Positions 187 through 7,887 of a stretch of 64,000 nucleotides of DNA are shown here, piece by piece. Position 1 is the first letter of the stretch; every line of letters starts with the position of its first letter. The notes beneath the pieces were generated by a model. It saw only the letters and a program-made list of their open reading frames with translations. It was not told where the DNA came from and did no database searches. This DNA comes from a virus (Duplodnaviria > Heunggongvirae > Uroviricota > Caudoviricetes), in the IMG/VR virus record IMGVR_UViG_3300016476_000468, positions 103,913-167,912 of that record; one strand, 5' to 3'. The position numbers and the translations under genes are program-made.

Positions 187-1098
187 ATGTCTACAACAAA
201 TGTATACTTCTCACAGGGAACTCGAAACGAGCAGTACCTAGTCGAAGACTTGATCATAGAATCATTGCGCATCTATGGTCAAGAGGTTATGTACATTCCA
301 AGAACACTAGTTTCAAAAGATGAGATTCTAGGAGAAGATCGCCTAAGCCAGTTTAAGTCTGCCTTTCCTATCGAAATGTATTTTGAGAACGTAGACTCAT
401 TCGGTGGACAAGGCGCATTTATTCAGAAGTTCGGTTTGATGATGGAGCAATCTGCGACTTTAGTCGTTGCTCGTCGTCGTTGGGAGCAGTTCGTTGGTCG
501 TTATGGGGTTACAACTGTTCCTACCAGACCAAACGAAGGCGATTTAATTTATTTCCCACTGTCCAAAGGTTTATTCGAGATCAAATTCGTTCAACACCAA
601 GACCCGTTCTATCAACTGGGTAAGTTGTATGTTTACAAGTTACAAGTTGAACTGTTCCAGTATGCATCTGAGCAAATCGACACTGGTATCGCTCAGGTCG
701 ACACATTTGAAACTCTTAAGACATTCAACACTAATACAACAAGAAACCAGACTGGTGGGGTGAAAACTATTACTATCACATCTAATGGAAACGGATACAC
801 ATCTGCGCCAGCAGTTAACTTAATTAGTTCTACTGGTAGTGGAGCAGTGGCTCAAGCCGTAGTTGTTAATGGTAAGGTAACTTCTGTCAACGTTATTAGT
901 AGTGGAACAGGTTATCAAACACCACCAGTAGTAACATTTGTTGGAGGTGGTGGTACTGGTGCACAGGCTGAGTCTCAAATTGAAATTAATATCGATAAAG
1001 CAGAATCTTTCGGCGACAACAATAAGTTTAAACAGCAGTCTTCAACTGTTCTTAACTTTGATGATTCTAACCCATTCGGGGAGATAAACAATGCTTAA
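187..1098 (+). CDS. neck protein, gp14-like, with C-terminal GNGYTSAP/GTGYQTPP repeat insertion
   Basis: Position immediately upstream of gp15; size close to T4 gp14 plus ~50 aa; repeat motif shared with sheath. Confidence 0.45.
   Translation: MSTTNVYFSQGTRNEQYLVEDLIIESLRIYGQEVMYIPRTLVSKDEILGEDRLSQFKSAFPIEMYFENVDSFGGQGAFIQKFGLMMEQSATLVVARRRWEQFVGRYGVTTVPTRPNEGDLIYFPLSKGLFEIKFVQHQDPFYQLGKLYVYKLQVELFQYASEQIDTGIAQVDTFETLKTFNTNTTRNQTGGVKTITITSNGNGYTSAPAVNLISSTGSGAVAQAVVVNGKVTSVNVISSGTGYQTPPVVTFVGGGGTGAQAESQIEINIDKAESFGDNNKFKQQSSTVLNFDDSNPFGEINNA
750..990 (+). repeat. two ~40-aa protein-level repeats (xTSNGNGYTSAPAVNLIS / VISSGTGYQTPPVVTFV) inside gp14-like ORF
   Basis: Seen in translation; same motif family as the sheath repeats at 3780-4275. 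Confidence 0.6.
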
Positions 1099-1834
1099 CG
1101 GAAGCGTTTACTACCATGGCACTATCCGAAAGGGTATTGTAGCATTCGGGCGTTTGTTTAGTGACATCTACATTGACCGTAAACAAGGTGATTCTGTAAA
1201 CGGAACAACGATGCAAAGATTGCAAGTTCCTTTGGCATACGCACCAAAAGAAAAATGGTTAGTTAGATTAGACTCAGATCCTAATCTAGAAAACAATACA
1301 ATGATTTCTTTGCCAAGAATGTCATTTGAAATCACAGACTACTCGTACGACTCTTCTCGTAAAACAAATCGTATGCAGAAAATTAAGTCTGGTGACTCCA
1401 ACGTTCAATCAACTGTGTACACTCCAGTCCCATATAACGTCGGAATCAACTTGTATATTCTAACAAAGACTCAAGAAGATGGTCTACAAATCCTTGAGCA
1501 GATTTTACCAACATTCACCCCAGAATATACACTAACAATCAACACCATAGACGCACTAGGAATCAAGACAGATATTCCTATCGTTCTAAATAATGTGTCA
1601 GTACAAGATGATTATGATGGATCCTTTCAAGAAAGAAGGTTTGTAACTCATACCTTGAACTTCACTATGAAGATGAACCTGTTTGGTCCAGTTTCTGGTC
1701 AGAATGTAATTACTCAAGTCAATGCTTCTGTTGGAAACAACGAAGACTATTCTAATCCAAATAGAACATACACCGCTGAGGGCGATACGCAAACCGTAAC
1801 TGTAACAAGTGAGAATTGGTTAGACACATTCTAA
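1091..1834 (+). CDS. gp15: tail sheath stabilizer / tail terminator, gp15-like
   Basis: Recalled T4 gp15 motifs: GRLFSDIYIDRK~GDLFSNIQIKR, LQILEQILPTF~FQIVEQILPYF, ERRFVTHTLNF~RRRIEWSLTF. Confidence 0.8.
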   Translation: MLNGSVYYHGTIRKGIVAFGRLFSDIYIDRKQGDSVNGTTMQRLQVPLAYAPKEKWLVRLDSDPNLENNTMISLPRMSFEITDYSYDSSRKTNRMQKIKSGDSNVQSTVYTPVPYNVGINLYILTKTQEDGLQILEQILPTFTPEYTLTINTIDALGIKTDIPIVLNNVSVQDDYDGSFQERRFVTHTLNFTMKMNLFGPVSGQNVITQVNASVGNNEDYSNPNRTYTAEGDTQTVTVTSENWLDTF

Positions 1835-3409
1835 ATGGCTGAGTTTTATAATAATAATCCAAACCTGAAGGCGGCTGGTGTACAGATAGCATTCACACCA
1901 GAGCAGATCCAAGAATATATTAAGTGTTCTCAGGATCCAGTTTACTTCATTGAAAATTATTGCCATATCGTCTCTCTTGACCACGGTTTGATTAAGTTCA
2001 AGCTATATGAGTGTCAAAAGAAAAAGATTGATGTCATCCATAACAACCGTAAGGTTATTCTTATGGAAGGGCGTCAGCAGGGTAAGACTACTACTTCTGC
2101 TGCTTATATTCTTTGGTACACAGTATTCCAACCAAACAAGAACGTAGCTATTCTAGCGAACAAAGCTACTGCTGCTCGTGAAGTTTTGGATCGTTACCAG
2201 ATTATGTACGAAGCTCTACCAATGTGGCTACAGCAAGGTGTTACTACTTGGAACAAGGGTGATATTGAACTAGAAAACGGCTCTAAAGTTTTCACTGCAG
2301 CAACTGCTGCTTCTGGTATTCGTGGTAAATCTGTTAACTTACTATACGTTGACGAAGCTGCTATCATTCCGAATACGGTTGCCGAACAGTTCTTTACTTC
2401 TGTTTACCCAACAATTTCTGCTGGTCAGACTACAAAGATTTTGCTGTCATCAACTCCATTGGGTTACAACCACTTCTGGAAGTTCTGGAACGATGCTGAG
2501 AACGGGCGTAATGGATTCGTACCGCTGTTCATTCCTTACTGGGAGATTCCAGGTCGTGATGAAAAGTGGGCTGAAGAACAAAAGGCGATGCTGGGTGAAC
2601 TCAAGTACAACCAAGAGGTTGCTTGTAAGTTCTTAGGTTCTAGCCTAACCCTAATTAATGCTGATATCATAGCACAGATGTCTATCGATCCGACCATCTA
2701 CCAAAAAGAAGGATTGGATGTTTATGTTAGACCATCTGCTGGGCACACTTATTGTCTGATTGCGGACGTAGCAAAGGGTGTTGGTGGAGACCACTCGGCT
2801 TTCCAAGTTATTGACATTACAGAAACCCCGTACAGAATCGTGGCTAAGTACCGCAACAACGAGATTAGTCCACTTCTTTACCCGAACGTTATACACAAAG
2901 TTGCAAAAGAATATAACGAAGCATATGTGCTGATCGAAACTAACATCAGCGAGCAAGTTGCATACATTTTACACGCTGAACTAGAATACGAAAATATCCT
3001 AATGGTGAACAGTTCATCTACTGGGCAATATGTAGGTGGCGGTTTCGGTGGAGGAAAAACACGTTTAGGTGTGAATACAGACAAGCGTGTTAAACGAATC
3101 GGATGCCATAACTTTAAGTCTATGGTTGAAGAGAAAAAGATGATTATTAATGATGCGGATACCATCTCCGAAATCTCTACTTTTATTGAAAAGAAGGGTT
3201 CTTATGAGGCGGATGAGGGATATCACGATGACTTAGTTATGCCTCTCGTGCTATTCGGTTGGCTCACAACCCAGCCATATTTCAAAGAGCTAAATAATGT
3301 AGATCTTCGAAAAGTTATGTATGAAAAGAAAATCCAGGCTATCGAAGAAGAATTGACTCCATTTGGGTTTTATGATGATGGGCAGGAAGCTGCCCCACTA
3401 AACTTCTAA
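1835..3409 (+). CDS. gp17: terminase large subunit (gp17-like), N-terminally short vs T4
   Basis: Walker A GRQQGKTT; IELENGSKV; GYHDDLVMPLVLFGWL nuclease motif; collinear with T4 gp17 from DIVYFAETYC onward. Confidence 0.9.
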   Translation: MAEFYNNNPNLKAAGVQIAFTPEQIQEYIKCSQDPVYFIENYCHIVSLDHGLIKFKLYECQKKKIDVIHNNRKVILMEGRQQGKTTTSAAYILWYTVFQPNKNVAILANKATAAREVLDRYQIMYEALPMWLQQGVTTWNKGDIELENGSKVFTAATAASGIRGKSVNLLYVDEAAIIPNTVAEQFFTSVYPTISAGQTTKILLSSTPLGYNHFWKFWNDAENGRNGFVPLFIPYWEIPGRDEKWAEEQKAMLGELKYNQEVACKFLGSSLTLINADIIAQMSIDPTIYQKEGLDVYVRPSAGHTYCLIADVAKGVGGDHSAFQVIDITETPYRIVAKYRNNEISPLLYPNVIHKVAKEYNEAYVLIETNISEQVAYILHAELEYENILMVNSSSTGQYVGGGFGGGKTRLGVNTDKRVKRIGCHNFKSMVEEKKMIINDADTISEISTFIEKKGSYEADEGYHDDLVMPLVLFGWLTTQPYFKELNNVDLRKVMYEKKIQAIEEELTPFGFYDDGQEAAPLNF

Positions 3410-3424
3410 TGAAAACTTGTAAAT

Positions 3425-3432
3425 CATAAATA
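3425..3432 (+). promoter_or_regulatory. late-promoter-like ATAAATA box with ~55 nt leader and AAGGAG RBS before gp18
   Basis: cATAAATAaaa 58 nt upstream of sheath ATG. Confidence 0.4.
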
Positions 3433-3489
3433 AAATATGTAGACATAAAACCTGTCTAGAGTAAAACTTATTAAATAAGGAGAATTACA

Positions 3490-5658
3490 ATGCCTTTCCA
3501 ACTATCTCCAGGCGTTGCAGTCGTTGAAAAAGATTTTTCAGCAATCGTTCCAGCTGTTTCTAGCTCCCGTGGTGCTTTCGCTGGTCCTTTTGCATGGGGT
3601 CCAGTTTTGGCTCCTACTAGTGTTACCTCTGAAAACGAATTAGTTCGTATCTTCGGTAAACCTACTGATGCTAACGCACAGGCATTCTTTACTGCTGCCA
3701 ACTTCCTATCTTACACTAATAGCATGCTGATTGCTCGTACTGATTCTGCTGCAGCTAGAAACGCTGTTGCCGTTCAGTCTGGTAGTGTTTCTAATATTGC
3801 TGTTACTGCTGGTGGTTCTGGTTACACTGCTATCCCAGCAGTTTCTATTTCTGCTCCACAAGACGCTGGCGGTATCCAAGCTACTGCTAACGCTCTTCTA
3901 AGCGGTGGTGGTGTTACAGCTGTAACAGTTTCTGCTGGCGGCTCTGGTTATACTACTGCTAACGTTTCTTTCTCTGCTCCACAGACACAAGGTGGAACTG
4001 CTGCTACTGGTACAGTTACGCTTTCTGGTGGTGCTGTAACAGGTATCGTTATCACTAGCGCAGGTTCTGGTTATACTTCTGCCCCAGTTGTTACTATTAC
4101 TGGTAACGGAACTGGTGCTGTTATCGGAACAGTTTCTATTTCTGCATCTGCTATCACTGCGATTTTTATCACTAATCCAGGTTCTGGTTACACTAGTGCT
4201 CCAACAGTAACTATCGCTTCTCCAGGCACTGGTGTTACTGCTACTGCTACTGCTACAATCACTACTGCTGGTGTTAAGATTAATAACAGCAACGACTACC
4301 TAGCAAACTTCGTGAACGGTGCTGGTGTGTTCGGTGAGTGGGCTGCACGTTATCCAGGCGCTCTAGGTAACTCTATCCTAGTTTCTATGGCAGACTCTGC
4401 TACATTCGCTAACTGGGCATACAAGTCTTTCTTTGACGCTGCTCCAAGCACTTCTAGTTTTGCTGCTCAAGTTGGTGGTTCTAACGACGAAGTTCACGTT
4501 GTTGTTATCGACGAAGACGGTCTATGGAGCGGTACTCCAGGAACTGTTCTAGAAAAATACTCTTTCGTTTCTAAAGCATCTGATGCTAAAAAGTCTGACG
4601 GAACAAATAACTACTACAAAGACGCAATCAACGCAGGTTCTGATTTCATCTATTGGATGGATCACCCAGCTGCTGTTGCTGCTAACTGGGGTACTTCTGC
4701 AGCTGCTAAGACATTCGCTTCTCTAGGTTCTGCAGTTACACGTTCTCTAAGCGGTGGTGTTGATAGCTTGACTGCTACTGACGGCGAAACAATGACTGCA
4801 TTCAGCCAGTTCGCTGATGACGCACAGTACGACATCTCTCTAATTCCAGTTGGTAAGGCTTCTGCAACTGTTGCTAACCACGTAATCGGTATCGCTGAAT
4901 CTCGTCTAGACTGCGTTGTGTTTGTTTCTGCGCAAGACGTATCTTCTGGCGACCCGATCATCGGTACTGGTTCTGCTGCTACTGACAAGATCGTTGCTTA
5001 CCGTAACGCTCTACCAAGCACTTCTTACGCTGTTCTGGATTCTGGTTACAAGTACCAGTATGACCGTTACAACGACAAGTACCGTTGGATCCCTCTAAAC
5101 GGTGACACTGCTGGTCTATGCGCTCGTACAGACTACACTAACGACCCATGGTTCTCTCCATCTGGTCTAAACCGTGGTCAGATCAAGAACGTTGTTAAGT
5201 TGGCACACAACCCAACTAAAGCAGATCGTGACGTTCTGTACAAAGTTGGTGTTAACCCAGTTGTTTCCTTCCCAGGTGAAGGTACTGTTCTATTCGGTGA
5301 CAAGACATTGCTTGCTAAACCAAGCGCATTCGATCGTATCAACGTTCGTCGTCTGTTCATCGTTATGGAAAAGGCTATCGCTACTGCTGCTAAGTTCCAA
5401 CTATTCGAGTTCAACGATGGCTTCACTCGTGCTCAGTTTAAGAACTTGATCGAGCCGTTCCTACGTGACATCCAAGGTCGTCGTGGTATTACTGACTTCG
5501 CTGTTAAGTGCGACGAGTCTAACAACACTGGACAAGTTATCGACTCTAACCAGTTCGTTGCTGACATCTTCGTCAAGCCAAACCGTTCTATCAACTTTAT
5601 TACTCTGAACTTCGTAGCTGCTCGTTCTAGCATCAGCTTCACTGAGTTGGGTGCGTAA
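3490..5658 (+). CDS. gp18: tail sheath protein gp18-like with four inserted 40-aa GSGYTSAP repeats
   Basis: Position after terminase; C-terminal sheath domain; length 722 aa. Confidence 0.85.
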   Translation: MPFQLSPGVAVVEKDFSAIVPAVSSSRGAFAGPFAWGPVLAPTSVTSENELVRIFGKPTDANAQAFFTAANFLSYTNSMLIARTDSAAARNAVAVQSGSVSNIAVTAGGSGYTAIPAVSISAPQDAGGIQATANALLSGGGVTAVTVSAGGSGYTTANVSFSAPQTQGGTAATGTVTLSGGAVTGIVITSAGSGYTSAPVVTITGNGTGAVIGTVSISASAITAIFITNPGSGYTSAPTVTIASPGTGVTATATATITTAGVKINNSNDYLANFVNGAGVFGEWAARYPGALGNSILVSMADSATFANWAYKSFFDAAPSTSSFAAQVGGSNDEVHVVVIDEDGLWSGTPGTVLEKYSFVSKASDAKKSDGTNNYYKDAINAGSDFIYWMDHPAAVAANWGTSAAAKTFASLGSAVTRSLSGGVDSLTATDGETMTAFSQFADDAQYDISLIPVGKASATVANHVIGIAESRLDCVVFVSAQDVSSGDPIIGTGSAATDKIVAYRNALPSTSYAVLDSGYKYQYDRYNDKYRWIPLNGDTAGLCARTDYTNDPWFSPSGLNRGQIKNVVKLAHNPTKADRDVLYKVGVNPVVSFPGEGTVLFGDKTLLAKPSAFDRINVRRLFIVMEKAIATAAKFQLFEFNDGFTRAQFKNLIEPFLRDIQGRRGITDFAVKCDESNNTGQVIDSNQFVADIFVKPNRSINFITLNFVAARSSISFTELGA
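3780..4275 (+). repeat. four tandem ~40-aa repeats (G-SGYT-AP-V-I-...G-G) in sheath protein
   Basis: GGSGYTAIPAVSIS / GGSGYTTANVSFS / AGSGYTSAPVVTIT / PGSGYTSAPTVTIA at ~120 nt spacing. Confidence 0.8.
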
Positions 5659-5693
5659 TTAGAGAATAAATAAGAAGAACAAAGGAGAATTAA

Positions 5694-6281
5694 ATGGCAA
5701 ATATTGCTGATTTTAAGTCACAAATGATTGGGGGCGGTGCTCGCCCTAATCAGTTCCGTGTTGAACTGACTTTCCCATCATTCGTAACTCTTGGAGCAGT
5801 AGCTGGTCAGCGTGCACAGTTCTTGTGTAAAGCTGCTCAACTACCAGCGTCTACAATTGAGACTATCCCTGTACTATTCAAGGGTCGTCCAGTTAACTTC
5901 GCTGGTGAACGCACTTTCGCTCCATGGACTGTTACGATCTATAACGATACCACTTTCGGTATCCGTAACGCTCTTGAGCAGTGGCAATCTGGTATCCAGA
6001 ACTATGACACTACTTCTGGACGCACAAACCCTACTGACTACCAAGTAGACTTGCAAGTTCACCAACTAGATCGTTCTGGCGCTATCATCAAATCTTATAA
6101 GTTTGTTGATGCATTCCCAACTAGCATCTCTGCTATCGGTTTGGATTATGAACAACAGAATGCGATCGAACAATTCGATGTAGAGTTTACATACAACTTC
6201 TTTACATCTGGCACTGGAGCTTCTTCTGGATTTGGAGTTAATGTTTCTATTGATACACCAGTTGGCTCTATTCCTCTATAA
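5694..6281 (+). CDS. gp19: tail tube protein gp19-like
   Basis: Synteny after sheath; size; late ATAAATA box upstream (5665-5672). Confidence 0.8.
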   Translation: MANIADFKSQMIGGGARPNQFRVELTFPSFVTLGAVAGQRAQFLCKAAQLPASTIETIPVLFKGRPVNFAGERTFAPWTVTIYNDTTFGIRNALEQWQSGIQNYDTTSGRTNPTDYQVDLQVHQLDRSGAIIKSYKFVDAFPTSISAIGLDYEQQNAIEQFDVEFTYNFFTSGTGASSGFGVNVSIDTPVGSIPL

Positions 6282-6300: not shown

Positions 6301-7887
6301 ATGCAATTTTTTGGATTCGAGATTACACGTAAAAAGGAGAAGGAGCTAGGCAGTGTCGTAGCTCCACCTCCAGTCGACGGGAGTACCGTAATAAACACTG
6401 GCGTCAATGCTGGTGGGTATTACGGTATGGTCATAGACGTTGAAGGCATTGTCAAGAACGAGAATGATCTTATCCGTCGTTATCGTGAAGTTTCTCAATA
6501 TTCTGATTGCGATGGCGCAATCGAAGACATCGTCAACGAAGCAATCGTTGTAGACGAGCAGGGTAAGTGCGTCAAGATGAACCTTGATGCAGTAGATGTT
6601 TCACCCAACATCAAGAAAAAGATTAACGAAGAATTTGAGAACGTTCTTAAAGTTCTAAAGTTCGAAGAGCGTGCACACGACATCTTCCGTTCTTGGTATA
6701 TTGACGGACGTCTTTATTACCAGATCCTAATCGACGAAAAGAATCTAAAGCAAGGTATCGTAGAATTACGTTACATTGATCCACGCAAGATTCGTAGAAT
6801 TAAAAACGTTGTTAAAGAAAAGAATCAACAAGGCGTTGAGGTTATCAAGGCTGTTGAAGAGTTCTACCTTTTTAACGACAGAGGTATTACTGAACAAACA
6901 ACACAGGGTGTCAAGCTATCTATTGACTCTGTTGTTTACGTTCCTTCTGGATACCTAGACCAGAACACTGGTATGATGATGTCATACCTACACAAAGCAA
7001 TTAAGGCTGTTAATCAGCTAAAGATGATCGAAGACGCTTTGGTCATCTACCGTATTTCTCGTGCGCCTGAACGTCGTATTTTCTACATTGACGTTGGTAA
7101 CTTACCTAAGGTTAAGGCTGAGCAATATGTTACGGACATTATGAACAAGTTCCGTAATAAAATTGTTTATGACGCTACCACTGGTGAGGTGCGTGATGAT
7201 CGTAAGCATATGTCTATGATGGAAGACTTCTGGATGCCTCGCCGTGAAGGTGGTAAAGGTACAGAAATTACTACACTTCCAGGTGGACAGAATCTTGGCG
7301 ATATCGAAGATATCCAATACTTCCAGAACAAACTGTATCATGCACTGAACGTACCTGTTGGTCGTCTGCAAGAACAACAAGGTTTCTCTATTGGTCGATC
7401 TGTTGAGATCTCCCGTGATGAAATCAAGTTCCACAAATTTGTTTCCCGTCTGCGTAAAAAGTTTGCAACTCTATTCACTGACGCACTGCGTGTTCAGTTG
7501 GCTGCAAAAAACATTATGCGCCCAGAAGAATGGGACGAGATCAAACAAGATATCCGCTACGACTTCGTAGAAGATAACCACTACTCCGAGTTGAAAGACA
7601 ACGAAGTGTTGATGGCTCGTCTTGCTACAATTCAGCAAATGGAACCTTACATCGGTAAGTTCTTCTCTATGAACTGGGTTAAGAAGAACGTTCTTCAACA
7701 GACTGAAGAAGATATCGAACAGATGCAAAAAGAAATGGATGCTGAAGAAGACTTCCATATGGATATGGCATCACGTGATGGTGAGATTGCAGGCGCTACA
7801 CAAGCCGCACAACAGAATTATTTACAAGCAAACGCACCGCAGGCACTTGAAGCGCCTACGAGCGACACACAAACAGGAGCTAAATGA
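6301..7887 (+). CDS. gp20: portal vertex protein gp20-like
   Basis: RSWYIDGRLYYQILID, YLHKAIKAVNQLKMIEDALVIYRISRAPERRIFYIDVGNLP match recalled T4 gp20. Confidence 0.9.
   Translation: MQFFGFEITRKKEKELGSVVAPPPVDGSTVINTGVNAGGYYGMVIDVEGIVKNENDLIRRYREVSQYSDCDGAIEDIVNEAIVVDEQGKCVKMNLDAVDVSPNIKKKINEEFENVLKVLKFEERAHDIFRSWYIDGRLYYQILIDEKNLKQGIVELRYIDPRKIRRIKNVVKEKNQQGVEVIKAVEEFYLFNDRGITEQTTQGVKLSIDSVVYVPSGYLDQNTGMMMSYLHKAIKAVNQLKMIEDALVIYRISRAPERRIFYIDVGNLPKVKAEQYVTDIMNKFRNKIVYDATTGEVRDDRKHMSMMEDFWMPRREGGKGTEITTLPGGQNLGDIEDIQYFQNKLYHALNVPVGRLQEQQGFSIGRSVEISRDEIKFHKFVSRLRKKFATLFTDALRVQLAAKNIMRPEEWDEIKQDIRYDFVEDNHYSELKDNEVLMARLATIQQMEPYIGKFFSMNWVKKNVLQQTEEDIEQMQKEMDAEEDFHMDMASRDGEIAGATQAAQQNYLQANAPQALEAPTSDTQTGAK

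Follow-up and report, generated by a model that had tools for sequence, protein, structure and literature searches.

The tail sheath and the gp14-like neck protein encoded by a T4-like phage known from metagenomes contain the same repeat unit of about 40 amino acids (aa). Their genes lie at the start of a 64,000-nucleotide stretch of Caudoviricetes DNA (positions 103,913 to 167,912 of the IMG/VR record IMGVR_UViG_3300016476_000468), which is referred to below as the window, and whose first 8 kb form a T4-like morphogenesis block according to open reading frame (ORF) calls, Pfam and PHROG. The unit, called here the GSGY unit, belongs to a large family that is undescribed as a domain and has no solved structure, and the slots that it fills in the sheath and in the neck protein both behave as cassettes, which in relatives hold from 0 to ~10 units, nothing, or a different module. 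The module is probably an exposed accessory decoration, the likeliest job of which would be low-affinity binding.

The repeat unit in the sheath and neck proteins

The sheath is assigned to the T4-type gp18 proteins by PF04984 (Phage_sheath_1; 57.7 bits, cut-off 31.4) and PF17482 (Phage_sheath_1C; 60.9 bits, cut-off 26.9), and the placement of its gene, which follows the large terminase and precedes the tail tube and portal, fits this assignment. The neck protein is of the T4 gp14 type by its conserved core, and its C-terminal 120 residues lie beyond the Pfam match. The two genes and their units, as scored with a hidden Markov model (HMM) of the unit, are the following.

187-1098, + strand: gp14-like neck protein gene, 303 aa; PF11649 (T4_neck-protein) E 1.2e-33, 117 bits, aa 11-185; phrog_460 (head closure Hc2) E 1.5e-91
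757-876, + strand: neck unit N1 (GVKTITITSNGNGYTSAPAVNLISSTGSGAVAQAVVVNGK), aa 191-230; unit HMM i-E 4.6e-17, sheath-only HMM i-E 2.3e-7
877-996, + strand: neck unit N2 (VTSVNVISSGTGYQTPPVVTFVGGGGTGAQAESQIEINI), aa 231-270; unit HMM i-E 8.3e-17, sheath-only HMM i-E 0.0068
1054-1086, + strand: conserved C-terminal peptide NFDDSNPFGEI of gp14, common by alignment to cyanophage and pelagiphage gp14 proteins with a different middle domain
3490-5658, + strand: tail sheath gene, 722 aa; PF04984, PF17482, PF22671; phrog_23 E 2.8e-125
3784-3909, + strand: sheath unit S1, aa 99-140; unit HMM i-E 3.5e-16; three predicted strands
3910-4032, + strand: sheath unit S2, aa 141-181; unit HMM i-E 8.3e-12
4033-4149, + strand: sheath unit S3, aa 182-220; unit HMM i-E 5.9e-14
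4150-4269, + strand: sheath unit S4, aa 221-260; unit HMM i-E 5.5e-16; followed by GVKINNSNDY

The four sheath units are arranged in tandem over residues 99-260 (nt 3784-4269), with the G-x-G-Y motif at positions 109, 151, 192 and 231, while the two neck units cover residues 191-270 (nt 757-996), with the motif at 201 and 240. The neck protein is therefore built of a conserved core (aa 1-185), the two-unit module and the conserved C-terminal peptide, and since this peptide is common to gp14 proteins with another middle domain, the module occupies a slot between two conserved parts.

The similarity between the two proteins is beyond chance or composition, as judged from their sequences. When only the four sheath units were used to build an HMM, it recovered the neck ORF (E 2.6e-9) as its sole other match among all six-frame ORFs of the window, and BLASTP with compositional adjustment returned three alignments between neck and sheath (E 3e-9 to 7e-9, 39-41% identity over 66-73 aa). 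The units are 26-54% identical to each other as proteins, and in pairwise comparison S1 resembles S2, and S3 resembles S4. At the DNA level, the neck and sheath units are 42-52% identical, and the codons are the same at just 4-7 of the 10-19 residues that are identical between them. A DNA repeat search detected short cores of 60-76% identity with a periodicity of 117-126 nt, within the sheath gene only, and found no repeat between neck and sheath. The low DNA identity, the mostly different codons and the missing neck-sheath DNA repeat indicate that the copies are old and have been kept at the protein level. A first-pass annotation of the window, made from the sequence alone, had already proposed a repeat common to the two proteins, four units in one and two in the other, that is conserved as protein and was not recently copied as DNA; both points are borne out, and both strings that it quoted are present. 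Its spacing of 2.5 kb needs correction, as the neck units end ~2.8 kb upstream of the sheath units.

Slots and their occupancy among relatives

In terms of DNA, no cultured phage is close to the window, the best match being a single 219-nt stretch at 75%. The nearest cultured sheaths are those of the Pelagibacter phages HTVC008M and Mosig, the Methylophilales phage Melnitz and cyanomyophages (44-55% identity over aligned segments). The clade is nevertheless common in metagenomes, with thousands of sheath and neck homologues (~4,900 and ~7,300, respectively), several of them on contigs of 164-175 kb.

Comparison with related sheaths, which the first-pass annotation had suggested, showed that the number of units varies at the same site. 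The 120 closest sheath homologues have 3, 4, 6 or 8 detected units there, nine motifs are visible in the 967-aa sheath P0119, and a 61%-identical sheath of 651 aa contains two units. Among neck homologues, each of the 120 closest has two. In one 390-aa neck homologue (P0148, 82% identical) an insert of ~85 aa without repeats separates the two GSGY units, which therefore tolerate separation in sequence.

No GSGY units were found in the sheath and gp14 of the cultured relatives HTVC008M, Melnitz, S-SSM5 and S-WAM1, whose sheaths have a conserved core 40-50% identical to the window sheath in full-length alignment, and whose gene neighbourhood is that of the window phage (gp13-gp14-gp15 ... TerL-gp18-gp19-gp20). 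Unlike the window sheath, the sheaths of these phages have an unrelated insert, which is located at a second site. In their gp14 proteins, the conserved core and the ...SNPFG C-terminal peptide are retained, but the middle module between them is a different one, of ~57 aa. Coverage of 96-98% in tblastn had pointed to the GSGY module in cultured cyanophage and Melnitz gp14 as well; this candidate was rejected, because the unit HMM and the alignment show a different middle domain.

Across 80 IMG/VR loci, 41 hold both the sheath and the neck gene. Units are present in both genes at 11 of these, in the sheath only at 6, in the neck only at 4 and in neither at 20, which corresponds to an odds ratio of 9.2 for their co-occurrence (Fisher p 0.003, uncorrected for phylogeny). 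The module is also found outside the two slots. Three loci (L053, L061, L086) have units at the second sheath site, and further ORFs of L062, L074 and L063 contain them too. The sheath of the cultured Xanthomonas phage X1 (L021:86-2062) has two units at residues 241-317 (i-E 2e-11 and 3e-14), which represent a third sheath site, in a loop matching residues ~390-400 of the window sheath; the site of T4 domain I is empty in X1. In addition, one gp15 (L086:1452-2450; PF16724, E 4e-69) has a C-terminal extension with two GSGY units, so that gp15 is a third protein of the neck and tail junction with a slot for the module. Mean pairwise identity in the sheath is 61% for the module versus 82-84% for the core, which makes the module the fastest-evolving part of the protein.

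A second, unrelated module of ~57 aa occurs in the neck region. In gp13 of the window phage it spans about residues 75-135, with the pattern FTVGETVTG...V..WD...R.L.L....G.F..GE..TG; it has no Pfam match, and the window contains no copy of it. The gp13 gene lies just 5' of the window start and can be read on contigs with an identical gp14:

L022:155-1114: gp13
L023:1559-2518: gp13
L024:1436-2395: gp13
L025:1117-2076: gp13

In relatives, this module fills the middle slot of gp14 (S-SSM5, S-WAM1 and many IMG/VR loci) and is found at the C-terminus of gp15 (e.g. L067:6461-7465) and in one sheath (L088). BLASTP between cyanophage gp14 and sheath gave E 0.001 for S-WAM1 and E 2.5 for S-SSM5, and an iterated HMM recovered the module in gp13, gp14, gp15 and the L088 sheath, and not in the sheaths of S-SSM5 or S-WAM1. 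Evidence that the cyanophage gp14 and sheath might have it in common is marginal.

Fold, T4 domain I and the proposed role

An alignment of 40 unit sequences yields the consensus xVxxIxxTNxGSGYTxAPxVTxxxGxGxGAxAxA over ~39 match columns, in which G11 and Y14 are invariant, and G13, P18, a later G and an A are nearly so. AlphaFold2 predicts an all-beta module with three strands per unit, at a predicted local distance difference test (pLDDT) score of ~90 in the full sheath model, and of 91.6 with a predicted template modelling (pTM) score of 0.77 for residues 90-270 alone. The isolated modules have no usable match among Pfam, NCBIfam and PDB sequences, Foldseek found nothing among 350,542 PDB chains (best E 1.3), no significant sequence or fold match to any carbohydrate-binding module family was found, and a literature search on the motif returned nothing relevant.

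The family is nonetheless very large. An exhaustive search of 1.84 billion cluster representatives with the unit profile HMM recovered 16,193 of them at E<=1e-3, 6,897 at <=1e-10 and 1,188 at <=1e-30, with up to 51 units per protein and proteins of up to 7,277 aa. Unit matches occur in PHROG profiles annotated as virion structural protein, baseplate wedge, tail fibre, hub-lysozyme and Hc2 (at E 1e-8 to 1e-20: phrog_460 for Hc2; phrog_701 and phrog_19630 for virion structural protein; phrog_708, 2885 and 438 for baseplate wedge; phrog_5342 for tail fibre). Sequences of the unit are therefore already in phage databases, but PHROGs are clusters of whole proteins, and the GSGY repeat is not delimited, named or described there as a domain. 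A Foldseek search of BFVD gave 33 matches at E<=1e-3, including P22 gp10-like, long tail fibre, baseplate wedge, endosialidase and cyanophage neck proteins and two giant-virus proteins. A few of 35 repeat-rich proteins that were scanned also have GH64, multicopper oxidase, PilX_N, NHL, fn3 or dockerin domains, which indicates that the unit is used on proteins with cellular-type domains as well.

In T4, gp18 domain I comprises residues 98-188, projects outward from the tail and makes no gp18-gp18 contacts; it is formed by six strands, touches the baseplate and docks the retracted long tail fibres (PMC3004832). BLASTP joins the window sheath and T4 gp18 in one continuous alignment (E 7e-100), where units 1-2 (query 96-183) pair with T4 residues 97-178, and T4 has no residues to match units 3-4. 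The two G-x-x-Y motifs of this stretch coincide with those of T4 (109 and 151 of the query, 107 and 146 of T4; Y-to-Y spacing 39-42 residues), the flanks of the slot, ARNAVA and VKINN in the query, match AKNSSP and GKIITD in T4, and GVKINNSNDY after S4 aligns with T4 GKIITDSG, where the chain returns to domain II. The module is thus inserted in domain II where T4 has residues 98-188, and its positional equivalence to domain I is solid. By analogy with T4, the slot would be external, in line with the exposed location proposed by the first-pass annotation. Its further statement that such a module is not part of the canonical T4 versions holds for gp14, which lacks it in T4, but not for the sheath, since T4 gp18 has a domain at exactly this site, which is also the best structural match found.

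These findings can be joined into a proposal that we consider moderately probable. A three-stranded beta unit of ~40 aa, drawn from a very large uncurated family, would be used on exposed parts of phage virion proteins; four units fill the sheath slot where T4 gp18 has its outward-protruding domain I, and two fill the gp14 slot from the conserved neck core to the conserved C-terminal peptide. Since sheath domains III and IV and the gp14 barrel, the contractile and neck cores, are conserved and the module comes and goes in both slots, the module would be a solvent-exposed accessory decoration that is dispensable for the core machine. The tail would then be covered from neck to baseplate by a nearly uncharged surface rich in Thr, Ser, Ala and Gly, and this surface may bind, at low affinity, polysaccharide on cells or particles, or the phage's own retracted fibres. 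Adhesion or fibre docking is the most likely function by analogy with other phages. Two points weigh against the proposal: the exposure of the units in this virion is argued entirely from the T4 analogy, and the 3-unit copy numbers, together with the S1-S2 and S3-S4 similarity pattern, do not fit a simple duplication in which two units make one barrel.

Such a barrel is central to the strongest alternative, in which the sheath module corresponds to T4 domain I by vertical inheritance and has been amplified in tandem. One six-stranded barrel would be made of two units, so that the window sheath would have two copies of domain I, which would contact the baseplate and dock fibres, and the gp14 copy would extend the docking surface to the neck. 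The shared insertion point, the aligned G-x-x-Y motifs with their spacing, the six strands of T4 domain I (2 x 3), BFVD matches of ~80 columns that superpose at 1.9-2.6 A, and the T4 sheath size of the close relative's 651-aa sheath with two units are all consistent with such descent. Every sequence-only test was, however, non-significant: the unit HMM reached T4 gp18 at E 0.02-0.2 only, covering just TISTPGSNY, hhalign against an alignment of 13 T-even phages gave 2-9% probability, and Smith-Waterman shuffle tests of the module against domain I gave z of 0-1. The attempt to prove homology from sequence by these routes failed. Furthermore, gp18 was not recovered by Foldseek from the PDB, the nearest cultured relatives are empty at the site, and shuffling is a better fit than vertical descent to the spread of the module, which is also found at two further sites of the sheath and on fibres, baseplate proteins, gp14 and gp15. 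T4 domain I (PDB 3FOA/3FO8) also differs in being a single copy, with a helix that replaces the second GSGY loop, against four units in the window phage, and the GSGY module is found at other sites and on other proteins, with significant sequence similarity lacking. Homology of the module to domain I may be put at about one in three, and the full scheme of descent and docking is a tentative possibility of much the same weight.

Alternatively, the units might act mainly as a structural outer layer, contacting neighbouring subunits so as to make the sheath and neck stiffer or thicker, with the copy number, 2 to ~10, setting the outer diameter of the tail. The pTM of 0.77 points to a single rigid body made up of all four units, not to beads on a string, and a stabilising effect of accessory sheath domains has been suggested for phage 812 and others (PMC9230969). 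T4 domain I at the same site, however, is free of gp18-gp18 contacts (PMC3004832), many relatives have no module at all, and no part of the sheath evolves faster. A purely structural layer is a reasonable rival, although an unlikely one.

A more far-reaching idea, which must be regarded as speculative and rather improbable, combines descent and docking. Here the GSGY unit would be the ancestral block of the outermost sheath domain, T4 domain I would be a degenerate two-unit copy, and the module, present on gp14 (in relatives also on gp15) and on each ring of the sheath, would form a continuous, uniform rail from neck to baseplate on which the phage parks its own retracted fibres. If so, the fibre set would be expected to co-evolve with the copy number and the type of module.

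The first-pass annotation suggested a surface-decoration or Ig-like module, and accessory sheath domains are indeed often Ig-like, the usual proposal for them being adhesion (to surface polysaccharide) or stability (PMC9230969). A Big-type adhesion domain with weak glycan binding, as in Hoc and other phage Ig-like domains, would have to be reconciled with several results. No Ig, Big or fn3 profile reached its gathering score, the best being Big_7 with 11.9 bits (cut-off 24.1; E 0.36); the PDB search returned no Foldseek match; the period is 40 aa and three strands versus ~90 aa and seven; no seven-strand beta-sandwich similar to solved Ig domains was seen; and copy number shifts in steps of 40 aa. 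Like the Ig-like and Big accessory domains (Hoc, pb10 and the 'additional domains' of sheaths), the module is small, beta-rich, apparently surface-exposed, dispensable, shuffled among virion proteins and variable in copies, and shuffled, dispensable surface domains on the sheath and other virion proteins are an already known phenomenon. It differs from them in fold class and period and has no solved structural relative by Foldseek. By all tests run, the module is not an Ig-like or Big domain, and this explanation is very improbable.

Low-complexity filler without a defined fold, with a merely compositional neck-sheath likeness, is effectively refuted: the composition of the sheath module is biased (G+A+S+T 65%; 1 charged residue in 162, 0.6%, versus 18% in the remaining sheath), and the low-complexity filter suppressed most matches in a tblastn search of cultured phages, leaving 6 records, but the composition-adjusted BLASTP match, the invariant G, Y and P columns at fixed spacing, the confident fold prediction, the BFVD structural matches and the gain and loss in whole units all argue for a folded module.

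Genomic context and significance

The remaining genes of the morphogenesis block are the following.

1091-1834, + strand: gp15 tail sheath stabiliser; PF16724 E 1.1e-71; the window copy has no GSGY units
1835-3409, + strand: large terminase; Pfam Terminase_6N, Terminase_6C
5694-6281: tail tube
6301-7887: portal

The gp15 stop codon abuts the start of the large terminase (1834-1835), and no small-terminase (gp16) gene lies between them, in which the window differs from T4, HTVC008M, Melnitz and S-SSM5. TerS of the window phage must therefore be encoded elsewhere or be absent. A 30-nt A/T-rich motif ending in AAGGAGAATTA occurs at 3458-3487 and 5663-5692, directly 5' of the sheath and tail-tube start codons, with 70% identity (repeat search, family D15); judging from its sequence and placement, it may be a common late promoter or ribosome-binding region. 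Two of the contigs that carry the identical gp14 have features of their own. In L022, an 8.3-kb ENA contig, an opposite-strand gene of the RND-efflux membrane-fusion type (L022:6588-8308) follows the sheath in place of the tail tube, and this junction looks like a chimeric assembly. In L023, the ORF 5' of gp13 (L023:3-1556) encodes a fibre-like protein that has repeats rich in Thr, Ser and Gly (GGTLGVTGATTLSSTL) and whose C-terminal region is similar to an intramolecular-chaperone (S74-like) end; the part of it that is covered contains no GSGY units.

Accessory domains of phage tails are believed to modulate adsorption and the stability of the virion, and most of those described are Ig-like. 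The GSGY module is a different and very abundant one (more than 16,000 sequence clusters, no Pfam entry and no solved structure), which appears in the role of an accessory domain in abundant uncultured T4-like phages from metagenomes. If it were defined as a domain, thousands of giant virion proteins now labelled 'hypothetical' would be better annotated. Furthermore, the slots in gp13, gp14, gp15 and gp18, which are filled, swapped or empty between close relatives, provide a concrete system for studying what the decoration of sheath and neck does, and the use of one module in matching neck and sheath slots makes this system tidy and testable. If the link to T4 domain I is true, the GSGY family would be tied to a model that is genetically tractable.

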